Part shown: positions 1 to 49,549 of the stretch, piece by piece | How the letters are laid out: the number at the start of each line of letters is the position of its first letter | Position numbering within the stretch: the first letter of the stretch is position 1 | Assembly (NCBI GenBank): GCA_034670305.1 | Contig: JAXMNT010000004.1 | Location: forward strand, 128,001 to 192,000 | DNA from: Deltaproteobacteria bacterium | GTDB lineage: Bacteria > Myxococcota_A > Polyangia > Polyangiales > Houyiibacteriaceae | Reading direction: 5' to 3' | Length of the DNA stretch: 64,000 nucleotides | Program-made: the position numbers and the translations under genes | Notes under the pieces: model-generated | The model's database searches: none | What the model was told of the DNA's origin: nothing | Seen by the model: only the letters and a program-made list of their open reading frames with translations

Positions 1-52
1 GCAAAGCCCACGCCTTCCCCTCTGCGAAGTAGCGCCTTCGCGGACGCGGGTA

Positions 53-77
53 GCGGAGCGCCCACGGGACGCTCCGC
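53..77 (-). terminator. Hairpin just downstream of four-helix-bundle copy 1
   Basis: Minus strand GCGGAGCGTCC-CGT-GGGCGCTCCGC, 8 nt after the stop; equivalent hairpin at 40939-40962. No clear U-tract here. Confidence 0.5.
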
Positions 78-85
78 CGCCCAGG

Positions 86-386
86 CTACCCGCGACTGAG
101 CTTGAACAACATCGCGCAGACGTGGTCCGCGAGGTCGTAGACGTCCTCCCCCACGTCCACGTACCCCATCACCCCCGCGACTTGAAGAGCCGCCTTCACC
201 TCGCGCGCTTCGCCAAGCGCGCGGGAGAACCCGTCGGGGTTCCGTCCGCCCCTCGCACTCCGAGACTCCGCTATCAAAAGCGGCACCGCCTGTGCCGCCC
301 GCCGCAGCGACTTCAGCGAAGCCTCGCGAATGCGAGGCAGAACCTCGCGTACGAGCACGAAGGAGCGACTTGTCGAATACCAGCAT
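86..386 (-). pseudogene. Four helix bundle protein (23S rRNA IVP/TIGR02436-like), frameshifted
   Basis: GGAGG RBS then ATG at 386 (MLVFDKSL), out of frame with the C-terminal part [12 protein letters not shown]...[12 protein letters not shown] (span 301 nt, not a multiple of 3); about 41/70 identical by my count to the C-terminus of 40969-41283. Confidence 0.75.
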
Positions 387-427
387 GTTGACCTCCCGGT
401 CGTTGCGCCGAGCGTGAACTCGCCCGA

Positions 428-556
428 GGGCGCGAAGCGCCCCCAGCTGTCGGCGGGGTGGCGGGTCAAGGACGAGCAAGCGCGAAGCGCGCCAGCGAAG
501 CGGCGGGCATCCCGCCGGGCCGAAGGCCTCCTTGAGGCGCCGCCTCGCCGACAGCT
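428..556 (+). repeat. Structured palindromic element, copy 1
   Basis: GGGCGC-GAA-GCGCCC hairpin, then long stem 445-463/538-556 and TCAAGGA/TCCTTGA enclosing GCGAAGC, GGCGG-GCATC-CCGCC and GGCC-GAA-GGCC. Confidence 0.85.
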
Positions 557-561
557 ACGCT
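532..561 (+). promoter_or_regulatory. Putative sigma70-type promoter within the element
   Basis: TTGAGG-18 nt-TACGCT; positional match TTGAGG-17 nt-CACGCT at 41402-41430. Confidence 0.45.
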
Positions 562-623
562 GGACCATCCATCGGGCCACCCACCTCCACGAGGAGGGGC
601 GCAGACTGGAGGCTGAGGTTCTG

Positions 624-996
624 CGTCGGCTTCGGCGGGCTTGCGTCGGCATCGGCGTCGGCGTCGGTTTCGGTTTCGGTTTCGGTTTCGGTTTCGGTTT
701 CGGTTTCGGCGTCGGGCATCGGCATCGGCTTCGGCATCGGCTTCGGCTTCGGCATCGGCTTCGGCTTCGGCATCGGCTTCGGCATCGGCGTCGGCTTCGG
801 CTCGGCGTGGGCTTCGGCTTCGGCGTCGGCTTCGGCGTGGGCTTCGGCTTCGGCATCGGCTTCGGCTTCGGCTTCGGCTTCGGCGTCGGCTTCGGCGTCG
901 GCTTCGGCGTCGGCTTCGGCGTCGACTGCTTTGGGATCGGCGTCGACTTTCGAGGGCACCAGCACCAGCACCAGCACCAGCACCAGCACCAGCACC
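624..996. repeat. Hexamer mosaic tract
   Basis: (TCGGC[T/A/G])n with (GGTTTC)7 at 666-707, then (AGCACC)6 at 961-996. Confidence 0.95.
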
Positions 997-1225
997 CACG
1001 GCCCGCCCTGTCCCGTCTGAGCAGCCCGTGCGTTTTCGCGTCCAGCCCCGCCTGGCGCCCCGCCCCGGAAAGATCGTCCAGGGACTGGCGCGGCCCCGAA
1101 CCCCTTGGCTATTCTCCCGCTCCGGGGGCTGCTGGGCGTGAGCAGTCTCCCACTCCAAACCGGTCGGGGGGCCTCGGTGGTTCTCCCGGCTCGACGCAAC
1201 CCCCCAGAAGCACTAGGTAGATCCG

Positions 1226-2476
<1,251 letters not shown>

Positions 2477-5222: not shown

Positions 5223-5361
5223 GCTTCGGCTTCGGCGTCGGCTTCGGCTCCGGCATCGGCTTCGGCATCGGCATCGGCTTCGGCTTCGGCTTCGGCTTCG
5301 GCTTCGGCTTCGGCTTCGGCTTCGGCTTCGGCGAATCGGCATCGGCTTCGGCCTCGGCTTC
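5223..5361. repeat. Hexamer tract
   Basis: (TTCGGC)n with ATCGGC variants. Confidence 0.95.
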
Positions 5362-5367
5362 GCGCGA

Positions 5368-5414: not shown

Positions 5415-5486
5415 GGGTGGGTAGCTCAGCGGTAGAGCGGCGCCTTTACACGGCGCTGGTCGCAGGTTCGATCCCTGTCCCACCCA
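5415..5486 (+). tRNA. tRNA-Val(TAC)
   Basis: GGGTGGG/CCCACCC acceptor stem, GCGCC-TTTACAC-GGCGC anticodon arm, GGTTCGATCC T-loop; followed by CCG, so CCA is not fully encoded. Confidence 0.97.
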
Positions 5487-25993: not shown

Positions 25994-26412
<419 letters not shown>

Positions 26413-30061: not shown

Positions 30062-30316
30062 CCGAAGCCCAGGCCCACGACGCCGAACCCGAAGCAGAAG
30101 CAGAAGCAGAAGCAGCAGCAGAAGCAGAAGCAGACGGCGACGCCGAAGCAGACGCCGAAGGCGACGCCGAAGCCGACGCCGAAGCCGAACCCGAAGCAGA
30201 AGCCGACGCCGACGCCGAAGCCGACGCCGAAGCCGAATCCGAAGCCGAAGCAGAAGCCGAACCCGAAGCCGAACCCGAAGCCGACGCCGACGCCGACGCC
30301 GAGGCCGACGCCGACC
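30062..30316. repeat. Hexamer mosaic tract
   Basis: (GAAGCC/GAAGCA/GACGCC/GAACCC)n. Confidence 0.95.
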
Positions 30317-32491: not shown

Positions 32492-32660
32492 CCCTTGCCC
32501 CTGCCCTTGCCCCTGCCCTTGCCCTTCGGATGAAGCGGAGTCGGCATCGGCTTTGGCATCGGGCATCGGGCATCGGGCATCGGGCATCGGCTTCGGCATC
32601 GGCTTCGGCATCGGCTTCGGCTTCGGCTTCGGCTTCGGCATCGGCTTCGGCATCGGCTTC
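32492..32660. repeat. Hexamer/heptamer mosaic tract
   Basis: (GCCC[C/T]T)n, then (GGCATCG)5 at 32555-32589, then (TCGGC[A/T])n. Confidence 0.95.
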
Positions 32661-37579: not shown

Positions 37580-37953
<374 letters not shown>

Positions 37954-40869: not shown

Positions 40870-40938
40870 AAAGGGTAGGAGCGTGACGGGGCAAGAACGG
40901 CTCAAATGATTCGGGAAGCGGAAGCGGAAACGGAAAGA

Positions 40939-40962
40939 GCCGGCGCCCAGGCGGACGCCGGC
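40939..40962 (-). terminator. Intrinsic terminator-like hairpin after four-helix-bundle copy 2
   Basis: Minus strand GCCGGCGTCC-GCCT-GGGCGCCGGC followed by TCTTTCCGTTTCCGCTTCCG. Confidence 0.6.
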
Positions 40963-40968
40963 CTCCGG

Positions 40969-41283
40969 TCAACGGCTTAGCTTGTAGAGCATCGCGCAGA
41001 TATGGTCGCACCGGTCGAGGAGCGCCGGGTCGACGTCGATGTACCCGAAGACCTCTGCGAGCTGCATCGCCGCCTTCAGCTCGCTGCACTCGCCACATGC
41101 AATCGAGAACTTGTCATGACACCGCAGCCCTCGCGCTTGCTTTGCTTCCGCAATGTTGAGGACCACGCTCTGCGCCGCCCGCTGCATCTGAGACGCAAGC
41201 GAAGCGTCGTGCTTGCGAACGCTCGGCAGCACCTGCGCACGCAGCGAACGAACCAGTTCGAAAGAAGTTTGAAGAACGATCAT
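40969..41283 (-). CDS. Four helix bundle protein (23S rRNA IVP/TIGR02436-like)
   Basis: 104 aa; QMQRAAQSVVLNIAE signature, A.GE..E...QLA..GYI, MLYKL. Confidence 0.9.
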   Translation of the reverse strand: MIVLQTSFELVRSLRAQVLPSVRKHDASLASQMQRAAQSVVLNIAEAKQARGLRCHDKFSIACGECSELKAAMQLAEVFGYIDVDPALLDRCDHICAMLYKLSR

Positions 41284-41320
41284 CGGAGACCCCTGAGTGA
41301 AGACGACCGAGCAGTGTGCC

Positions 41321-41430
41321 CGGCGGCCGCAGGCCGCCGTCGCCTGGTGGGTCAGGGGTCAAGGGCGAAGCGACGCGCATCGCGTCGGGCCGAAGGCCCC
41401 CTTGAGGCCTGGCACACCAGGCGACACGCT
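41321..41430 (+). repeat. Structured palindromic element, copy 2
   Basis: CGGCGGCC-GCA-GGCCGCCG hairpin; stem 41339-41356/41408-41425; TCAAGGG/CCCTTGA enclosing GCGAAGC, GACGC-GCATC-GCGTC and GGCC-GAA-GGCC. Confidence 0.85.
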
Positions 41431-41530
41431 TGATCACCTGCCGTGCACAACCCCACCCGCAAAATGGGCACTCGAATCCCCACTCCGAAGGAGAGGATTC
41501 GGCCGACCTCCGAAGGAGGAGGCTACCCGC

Positions 41531-41640
41531 GGTTTCGGTTTCGGTTTCGGTTTCGGTTTCGGTAGCGGAAGCGGAAGCGGAAGCGGAAGCGGAAGCGGAA
41601 GCGGAAGCGGAAGCGGAAGCGGAAGCGGAAGCGGAAGCGG
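41531..41640. repeat. Hexamer tract
   Basis: (GGTTTC)5 GGTAGC (GGAAGC)~12. Confidence 0.95.
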
Positions 41641-41689
41641 AGCAGAACTCTTTTGAGCCGTTTCCGAGTGCCCGGTCTCCTACCCCGCA

Positions 41690-44994: not shown

Positions 44995-45024
44995 GAGCGC
45001 CGCGCCGGAGCTGCCTCCGAATTT

Positions 45025-45096
45025 GGCCGAAGGCCTCCTTGAGGCGCCACCCCGCCGACCGCCTACGAGAAGGGGCGCAGACTGGAGGATGAGGTT
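45025..45096 (+). repeat. Truncated copy 3 of the structured element
   Basis: GGCCGAAGGCCTCCTTGAGGCGCC as at 518-541; 45065-45096 matches 589-620 at 30/32 nt. Confidence 0.9.
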
Positions 45097-45262
45097 CGGC
45101 TTCGGCGTTCGGATTCGGATTCGGCATCGGATTCGGCATCGGATTCGGCATCGGCATCGGCTTCGGCTTCGGCTTCGGCGTCGGCGTCGGCTTCGGCGTC
45201 GGCTTCTTCGTCGGCTTCTTCGTCGGCTTCGGCGTCGGCTTCTTCGTCGGCTTCGGCGTCGG
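45095..45262. repeat. Hexamer mosaic tract
   Basis: (TTCGGA/ATCGGC/TTCGGC/GTCGGC)n and 12-mer TCGGCTTCTTCG. Confidence 0.95.
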
Positions 45263-45310
45263 CGCCGCCCTCGCCCTCGCCGTCGCCAGTCGACCTCCCC
45301 CTCCGCGCCT

Positions 45311-49472: not shown

Positions 49473-49549
<77 letters not shown>

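Follow-up and report, generated by a model that had tools for sequence, protein, structure and literature searches.

What is the large branched palindrome that stands upstream of two genes for four-helix-bundle proteins (Pfam family PF05635) in a 64,000-nucleotide (nt) stretch of a deltaproteobacterial genome (assembly GCA_034670305.1; contig C4, positions 128001-192000; the whole stretch is hereafter called the window), and in which form, DNA or RNA, and on which strand does it act? The source assembly comprises 7.9 Mb in 105 contigs with 68% G+C. Throughout, the plus strand is the strand antisense to the gene, i.e. the gene's template strand, and the minus strand is the gene-sense strand. 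The element is, with virtual certainty, both real and under selection as a partner of this clade of four-helix-bundle genes. As to its function, the reading to which we give the largest share of belief (a probability of roughly 0.35) is that of a hairpin or single-strand DNA promoter that would be aimed at the four-helix-bundle gene.

A preliminary description of the sequence had compared positions 428-556 with 41321-41425 and listed seven common features, all of which are present in both sequences: a leading hairpin (GGGCGC-GAA-GCGCCC at 428-442, CGGCGGCC-GCA-GGCCGCCG at 41322-41340), long outer stems of differing sequence, a G/G internal loop, the arms TCAAGGA/TCCTTGA versus TCAAGGG/CCCTTGA, a GCGAAGC motif, a hairpin with a GCATC loop, and GGCC-GAA-GGCC. 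As described, the distance between each element and the start codon of the neighboring minus-strand gene is approximately 40 nt (ATG complement at 384-386 and 41281-41283). Both sites are thus real, but the extents given for them were too short, as the enclosing helix P0 leads to boundaries of 422-577 and 41319-41447. The calculated fold energy of positions 420-565 amounts to −93.6 kcal/mol for the plus strand (z −4.19) and −95.1 kcal/mol for the minus strand (z −4.59), that of positions 41310-41435 to −80.1 (z −5.08) and −73.8 kcal/mol (z −4.54), respectively; none of 200 shuffles folded as well as either site on either strand.

The element measures 130-160 nt and forms a three-way junction composed of the closing helix P0, the hairpin P1 and a long stem, P2/P3, with small inner hairpins. 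P2 is a long stem whose sequence is unlike between the subfamilies (see below) and which is broken by an internal loop, P3 consists of the conserved GTCAAGG/CCTTGAC, and the inner hairpins comprise the GCGAAGC mini-hairpin, a variable P4 and P5 (GGCC-GNA-GGCC). An extra hairpin of approximately 60 nt is inserted in P4 at loci L100, L109, L115 and L107 (genomes G139 and G134), with the remaining fold kept.

When 32 copies were aligned with MAFFT alone, the inner hairpins were misplaced, and RNAalifold consequently recovered no more than 20 pairs. A covariance model was built from subfamily C with a hand-checked structure and used for model-guided alignment; this model recovered the copies of subfamilies A and B over their full length. 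Both alignments that were analyzed for covariation are fitted to the model and consequently lean toward its structure; values for controls in which the pairing partners were slid are given alongside. Among 36 copies of the source genome, 94.9% of the alignment cells pair (28.8-47.9% with slid partners), 24 of the 44 pairs have changed on both sides, and the covariation score is 0.373 (slid: 0.027-0.071), a value reached by 0 of 500 shuffles. Among 31 copies from 14 other genomes, the corresponding values are 93.7% (slid: 33.8-40.8%), 37 of 44 pairs and 0.499 (slid: at most 0.082), again with 0 of 500 shuffles reaching the score. The gene-proximal helices vary freely, with changes on both sides in 6/6 pairs of P0 and 5/5 pairs of P1 in the other genomes; the internal loop, GCGCAG facing CGAGCAC, is invariant amid helices that change freely. 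In view of the slid controls and of the changes in every helix, the fold is secure despite the model-fitted alignments.

A profile made from seven copies detected 45 hits in the contigs of the source genome, of which 41 are significant (E <1e-5); the copies belong to three subfamilies (A, B and C), and the 41 significant ones are spread over many of the 105 contigs between ordinary genes. PF05635 has 47 matches in the genome (39 above cut-off), and the element is located divergently upstream of 36 of them; the other 11 are accounted for by three matches at contig ends, seven belonging to another cassette type and one without its upstream region. With the second covariance model, 5 of 40 relatives and 10 of 150 genomes from the order were found to carry the element; in all, it is present in 14 distinct other genomes of the same order, representing five families. 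A phylum-wide sample of 150 genomes gave no match beyond the source genome, with 22 candidates scored per genome, so that weak copies may be missed; since the genome searches scored only 22-82 candidates per genome, all distribution counts are lower bounds. The proposed co-occurrence with four-helix-bundle genes was borne out outside the source genome as well: in 27 of 28 testable external copies, such a gene starts a few to approximately 90 nt from the P0/P1 side of the element and reads away from it, encoding a protein that is about 29-49% identical to those of the window; the 28th copy (L078) has the same gene-start flank as its relatives.

Within each subfamily, the paralogous genes are separated by dS values (synonymous substitutions per site) of 0.51-0.68 at dN/dS ratios (non-synonymous to synonymous) of 0.06-0.13, and the elements differ by 7-9% in comparison with 27-34% at third codon positions; the element thus diverges three to four times more slowly than the synonymous sites of its gene. 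Judged from these rates, the copies are old paralogues, in each of which both gene and fold are held by purifying selection. The earlier suggestion of a selected structure is therefore upheld by two lines of evidence, covariation across genera and a divergence far below that of synonymous sites. The orientation of neighboring genes follows no rule (25 units for which both neighbors could be called: nine convergent, nine co-directional with the gene, five co-directional against it, two divergent). Some units are paired at a distance of approximately 1 kb, either in tandem (C46:57820-58981) or tail-to-tail with converging genes (L080, identical with L082, of G033; L112 of G138). Contigs from four public DNA runs of one study, consisting of fragmented unitigs and repeat joints, contained no pair of filled and empty sites.

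The units follow a fixed three-part order of PF05635 gene, element and short tandem-repeat array, as seen in the features of the two units of the window (A and B):

53-77, minus strand: terminator-like hairpin of unit A, just past the stop codon of the gene; present in the aligned subfamily-A copies with a stem sequence that varies by copy; not called by the consensus scan.
86-386, minus strand: broken four-helix-bundle gene of unit A (PF05635 at 1.5e-6 and 28.8 bits, under the cut-off of 33.8).
387-421, minus strand: spacer with the ribosome-binding site GGGAGG of the unit-A gene, read directly and kept in subfamily A.
422-577, plus strand: folded element copy A (P0 at 422-427 with 572-577, P1 at 428-442, long stem P2/P3, inner hairpins including P5 GGCC-GAA-GGCC); 43.6 bits with covariance model R1, 86.9 bits with model R2.
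532-537, plus strand: TTGAGG, −35-like hexamer of copy A in the 3' arm of P3.
556-561, plus strand: TACGCT, −10-like hexamer of copy A, 18 nt past the −35-like hexamer, its second base being A and its sixth T; located at the foot of P2, the first base paired, the remaining bases in the unpaired junction.
646-996, plus strand: hexamer arrays after copy A (TCGGCT x46.5 at 646-924, GCACCA x6.8 at 956-996).
1226-2476, plus strand: clpX.
40938-40963, minus strand: terminator-like hairpin with T-rich tail after the unit-B gene.
40969-41283, minus strand: intact four-helix-bundle gene of unit B, 104 amino acids (PF05635 at 3e-15 and 56.8 bits, cut-off 33.8; closest solved chain 2gsc_A, 3.1e-5).
41319-41447, plus strand: folded element copy B; 65.1 bits (R1), 113.9 bits (R2).
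41403-41408, plus strand: TTGAGG, −35-like hexamer of copy B.
41426-41431, plus strand: CACGCT, −10-like hexamer of copy B, 17 nt past the −35-like hexamer.
41530-41641, plus strand: hexamer arrays after copy B (CGGTTT x5.7, then CGGAAG x13.7).
45024-45062, plus strand: remnant with only the 3' part of a subfamily-A element, from the P5 hairpin on (nhmmer E 2.8e-4), without gene and followed by an array at 45095-45263.

The reading frame of the unit-A gene is broken because 8 nt and 3 nt have been lost in comparison with nine intact paralogues; the frame shifts after codon 9. The unit, its element and approximately 350 nt of hexamer arrays (window 1-1226) lie upstream of clpX, and the open reading frame (ORF) upstream of unit A looks ClpP-like by eye; if this ORF is clpP, more than 1 kb by a good margin would separate clpP from clpX, which are usually adjacent, and the four-helix-bundle gene would run antisense to the pair. 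Matches to Rfam in the whole window were confined to two tRNA genes (5415-5486 and 49476-49549), without any rRNA.

A tandem array is present past the far side of the element, within 150 nt, in all 26 external copies with at least 100 nt of available sequence; these arrays have a period of 5-14 nt (mostly 6), start 4-126 nt beyond the element and differ in their unit by locus, and in 10 of 23 external copies there is an array beyond the gene, too. In the source genome, subfamily A is followed at 42-90 nt downstream by an (NNTCGG)n array in the same orientation; the array position and orientation of copy A are shared by other subfamily-A copies, and subfamily C has different arrays on its two sides. 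Neither the array that regularly follows the element nor the promoter-like motif discussed below had been noticed in the preliminary description. The genome contains 922 arrays of at least five NNTCGG units, which cover 85.5 kb, besides other unit types; array sites in the window are 646-924, 5223-5362, 26042-26412, 30078-30314, 32541-32657, 37580-37953, 41530-41641 and 45095-45263. Because arrays are this common, their adjacency to the element is partly expected by chance; the constant side and distance are not.

Several properties of the helices and loops suggest that the fold is formed by DNA of the plus strand. Of 196 hairpin loops in plus-strand folds calculated with DNA parameters, 149 are triloops, among which G-N-A occurs 93 times and T-N-C once; the middle base varies, and G and A are constant. 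By this asymmetry, the strand that the preliminary description had assumed to fold, namely the plus strand, antisense to the gene, is the better of the two candidates. The helices are almost purely Watson-Crick, with G-T pairs in 2.8% of the cells in the source genome (39/1411) and 1.8% in the other genomes (19/1085); a wobble share below 3% is low for a set of RNA helices, and such rarity fits DNA, or a cruciform that requires pairing on both strands. As stated in the preliminary description, d(GCGAAGC) is unusually stable as DNA. A G-N-A triloop closed by a sheared G:A pair is described as an especially stable DNA loop in the promoter hairpins of phage N4 (available text of PMC4496689).

The only conserved motif that recalls a promoter is located within the fold. 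On the plus strand, the 3' arm of P3 contains TTGAC(G) or TTGAGG, followed after 15-18 nt, i.e. the 3' arm of P2, by an xAxxxT hexamer (TACGCT, CACGCT, CACAAT, GACAAT, TACCGT or CACCAT) in which A2 and T6 are kept. This combination is present on the plus strand of 55 of 60 distinct full-length copies, on the minus strand of none of the 60, and in 98 of 6000 mononucleotide shuffles. The −35-like hexamer takes part in the pairing of P3; of the second hexamer, the first base forms the last pair of P2 and the rest is unpaired in the P2/P0 junction. No conserved hexamers were found in the gene-proximal helices P0 and P1 of the other-genome alignment, and in several external copies no more than about 6-20 nt separate the element from the start codon, too little for an ordinary promoter.

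Based on these features, the folding strand is proposed to be the gene's template strand, antisense to the gene and folding as DNA, and the folded plus strand would imitate an already-opened sigma-70-type promoter with the second hexamer at the stem foot in a bubble held shut by P0. With the −35 element on the loop side and the −10 element at the foot of the 3' arm, the promoter would point out of the hairpin foot, and the 5' arm and the sequence beyond it (P1, the P0 arm, the complement of the ribosome-binding site and the gene) would serve as template. In the unfolded duplex, the same motif would point in the opposite direction, into the repeat array. Since the direction of the motif differs between folded and duplex DNA, the conformation of the DNA, as set by supercoiling or single-stranded passage, would decide on the expression of the gene. 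A hairpin promoter of this kind explains at the same time why the element is polar toward both gene and array, why the hexamers are conserved and the arm length is constant, and why the loops are of the DNA type and the stems Watson-Crick. A chromosomal conformational switch, in which the relaxed duplex would fire into the array and the extruded palindrome would become a pre-opened promoter of the gene, is put forward more tentatively, as a possible but rather unlikely extension.

The closest counterparts are found in mobile DNA. The Frpo hairpin folds to mimic a duplex −35/−10 promoter, and its folded strand is the template of the genes that it drives (PMC11541004; PMC6294495; available text). 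In its layout, the element resembles Frpo/ssi of plasmids F and ColIb-P9 insofar as the putative folding strand is the template of the gene just past the hairpin foot (36/47 in the source genome, 27/28 externally); it is on this strand that the −35/−10-like hexamers are located. In contrast to Frpo/ssi, it is chromosomal and dispersed, neither beside an origin of transfer (oriT) nor in a conjugative leading region, its −10-like hexamer is weak and mostly unpaired, an A+T-rich UP element is absent, and GC-rich triloop hairpins are set on a branched three-way junction. A similar comparison holds for the promoters of the N4 virion RNA polymerase: according to the available text of PMC4496689, the small, GC-rich N4 hairpins extrude from duplex DNA at physiological negative supercoiling, and the template-strand hairpin, with a loop of 3 nt closed by a sheared G:A pair, is stable and recognized. 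Common to both systems are G-N-A triloop hairpins on the gene's template strand (93 of the 149 triloops here); the N4 hairpins, however, have only 5-7 base pairs (bp) and are read by a phage single-subunit polymerase instead of through a sigma-70-type motif, whereas the present element is about ten times larger and lacks a phage context.

A number of observations weigh against a hairpin promoter. The 60 copies are homologues, so that the ratio of 55/60 shows conservation and not independent trials; the −10-like hexamer matches TATAAT at only two to four of six positions and is mostly unpaired, and a consensus sigma-70 scan around both copies gave no site at thresholds stricter than the motif reported here. 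The earlier claim that G-T pairs favor the plus strand holds weakly in the source genome (39 G-T versus 8 A-C cells, mostly at two inherited positions) and in P0, P2, P3 and P5 of the other genomes (16 versus 6) but not over all helices of the latter (19 versus 24). Calculated energies do not pick a strand either: the plus strand has the lower energy in 18 of 32 (first set) or 22 of 33 own copies with RNA parameters and in 28 of 33 with DNA parameters; for the 27 external copies, the counts are 9 with RNA and 13 with DNA parameters. Hence, the loop asymmetry is the clearest strand signal, the wobble signal is weak and the energies are non-discriminating. In 32 of 41 copies (p ~5e-4, normal approximation), moreover, the local GC skew places the plus strand on the C-rich side; this side corresponds to the template of the leading strand, of which little is exposed at replication forks. 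The units are outside any plasmid leading region, copy A adjoining clpX, and we know of nothing that would supply single-stranded DNA at about 40 scattered sites of the chromosome. Finally, a conserved fold just upstream of a gene is far more commonly due to a structured 5' leader RNA.

Such a leader is the first alternative to be weighed. The mRNA would start on the array side, and the reverse complement of the fold would act in cis, either as an autoregulatory site for a nucleic-acid-binding four-helix-bundle protein or as a long stem cut by RNase III as in rRNA intervening sequences (IVSs). In accordance with this, the fold is directly upstream of the ribosome-binding site in every copy and conserved by covariation, the invariant internal loop amid covarying helices looks like a protein-binding site, and sense transcription is certain in view of the ribosome-binding site and the terminator-like hairpin that belong to the gene. 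The gene-sense strand is on the G-rich side in 32 of 41 units, whereas the long ORFs of the genome are without bias (1238 versus 1251, i.e. 1238/2489), which fits mainly sense transcription, and with RNA parameters 18 of 27 external copies show the better fold on the sense strand. On the sense strand, in contrast, the triloops would read U-N-C (one of the G-N-A type versus 93), which is no known stable motif, the 39 G-T cells of the source genome turn into C-A mismatches against 8 wobble pairs, the low wobble share mentioned above is uncharacteristic of RNA helices, and the array side has no conserved promoter, the region not being conserved between genera. On balance, we regard a leader RNA as unlikely.

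The comparison with IVSs has a further basis. The IVS of Coxiella is a structured element with a gene of the same family, and, like the ORF-bearing IVSs of 23S rRNA (S23p; Coxiella, Leptospira), the units tie a PF05635 gene (56.8 bits for unit B) to a palindrome and to short-repeat arrays (PMC4990558, available text). In contrast to IVSs, the present units are not inserted in rRNA, the gene is beside the fold and not within it, and the flanking arrays are mostly not mutually inverted. A fourth unit type of the source genome, which lacks the branched element (C14:16486, C15:131727, C1:298705, C83:18949, C32:46375, C5:239589 and C63:24547), has the classical layout of a gene between inverted hexamer arrays (CCCTTG-type on one side, the complement on the other); its short inverted ends overlap the TAG stop codon of the neighboring gene, and most copies are frameshifted or interrupted. 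Two short CCCTTGCCCCTG arrays of the window (25996-26028 and 32492-32524), with no PF05635 match nearby, resemble the arms of this type and may be empty or decayed arms of the fourth cassette. A repeat of approximately 80 nt, which contains a GGGGGCACAGCCCCC hairpin, interrupts the P5 loop of one element (C10:57229-57305) and is also present inside four-helix-bundle genes (C11:27473 and several fourth-type copies); it is probably a miniature mobile element.

If the plus strand were instead transcribed, the element would be a non-coding RNA divergent from, or antisense to, the gene start, and an RNA partner of the protein comparable to the spacer RNA of Avd in diversity-generating retroelements (DGRs). 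The loops, the wobble pairs of the source genome, and those of P0, P2, P3 and P5 in the other genomes favor this strand, and covariation around an invariant internal loop is typical of functional RNAs. PF05635 resembles Avd, and here, too, an Avd-like protein is combined with a structured nucleic acid beside its gene (PMC10053308, available text); unlike in DGRs, there is no adjacent reverse transcriptase (RT), and the fold is on the opposite strand, upstream of the gene; a pair of template and variable repeats was not noticed either, no search aimed at it having been made. However, no motif resembling a promoter precedes the element on its left side, the sole conserved motif is inside and would start an RNA past the long stem, terminator scans found no terminator after the element, transcription would run head-on to replication in 32 of 41 copies, and the helices are almost wobble-free. 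A plus-strand RNA is accordingly considered quite unlikely.

The number and dispersal of the 41 significant copies over many contigs, the DNA-stable loops and Watson-Crick stems, the biased orientation relative to GC skew (32/41), and the clustering of truncated remnants and of an insertion at the P5 hairpin could also be expected from a single-stranded DNA site for recombination, transposition or priming that moves or copies the gene-plus-array unit, such as the HUH/Y1 sites of repetitive extragenic palindromic (REP) sequences and their REP-associated tyrosine transposases (RAYTs), an attC-type site or a primosome signal; Frpo was reportedly found by Masai and Arai in 1997 to prime DNA synthesis as well. 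The HUH/REP recognition site that the preliminary description had suggested could not be upheld: the 11 Y1 genes of the genome carry unrelated inverted ends of their own, and none is near any copy. At the unit borders, neither target duplications nor shared ends were seen; the old paralogues (dS 0.5-0.7) under purifying selection are unlike a recently spreading repeat; and the 80-nt insertion is a separate small repeat that also occurs inside genes. A retrotransposition-style 5' truncation of the remnants was rejected: seven of them retain only the 3' part, yet the one on contig C54 retains the terminator hairpin of the gene, and for this reason they look like internal deletions. Taken together, a recombination or priming site appears very improbable.

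REP sequences and bacterial interspersed mosaic elements (BIMEs) have in common with the element that they are multi-copy, intergenic, GC-rich palindromes whose pairing is kept through compensatory changes. REPs are single hairpins of 20-40 nt that flank a RAYT gene, whereas the element is branched, 130-160 nt in length and tied to a different gene, the Y1 genes having other ends. The 11 matches to PF01797 are positioned at C20:45721, C31:83470, C38:23649, C68:18551, C1:180072, C11:64206, C59:42685, C14:72834, C55:38224, C15:125984 and C63:39153; ten of these genes encode proteins of about 230-237 amino acids and have conserved inverted ends of their own. A HUH/RAYT link was thus dismissed, as the conserved ends of the PF01797 genes are unlike the element and none is among its 45 hits.

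It might further be argued that the plus strand is exactly what a cDNA of the sense transcript would be: an RT acting in trans, with an Avd-like cofactor, would copy a leader RNA into a folded single-stranded plus strand, like the multicopy single-stranded DNA (msDNA) of retrons. G-N-A loops and Watson-Crick stems suit DNA, P0 recalls the inverted repeats that close retron msr/msd, and the genome contains three RT genes. None of these is adjacent to any of the 41 copies, and the encoded proteins (approximately 460-550 amino acids) contain RVT_1 only and stand in unrelated contexts, so that the RT link considered in the preliminary description fell away and a structured cDNA must be rated as highly improbable. 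An RT link was also rejected from the side of the protein family: the three RVT_1 genes are located away from the units, and two RT ORFs and three neighboring ORFs have no PF05635 match in Pfam.

Against Rfam release 15, no described family matched: with E values of up to 1 allowed, the search of six copies yielded six rows, all at chance level and below the gathering scores. Among individual families, the Gut-1 motif (RF01706) did not match the element; Gut-1 is listed as a gut-only non-coding RNA in PMC2864571, the available part of which does not mention any four-helix, intervening-sequence or S23 link. In the literature, PF05635 was found to be discussed only as Avd or as intervening-sequence protein and without a fold beside the gene, supplementary motif lists aside. 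The architecture of the module differs both from rRNA intervening sequences and from known folded-DNA promoters.

Members of PF05635 are widespread and often multi-copy, with no function outside retroelements known to us. With the present element, one clade of the family gains a defined nucleic-acid partner, characterized by covariation, an invariant internal loop, a fixed polarity and an ever-present array, and the 150-nt substrate makes the function of the family directly testable by binding, transcription and probing experiments. Should one of the RNA readings be true, the element would represent a well-supported structured RNA class new to Rfam. Either way, the locus-specific array beside every copy suggests a mechanistic link between these modules and bacterial short-repeat arrays. 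If, on the other hand, the hairpin-promoter reading is true, folding-dependent promoters would extend from entering plasmids and phage N4 to ordinary chromosomes; the element would then be the first class of hairpin or single-strand promoters outside plasmids and phages, with dozens of paralogous copies per genome, and would connect the enigmatic Avd/IVS-protein family with DNA topology and with the short-repeat arrays, so far unexplained, that stand beside such genes across bacteria.

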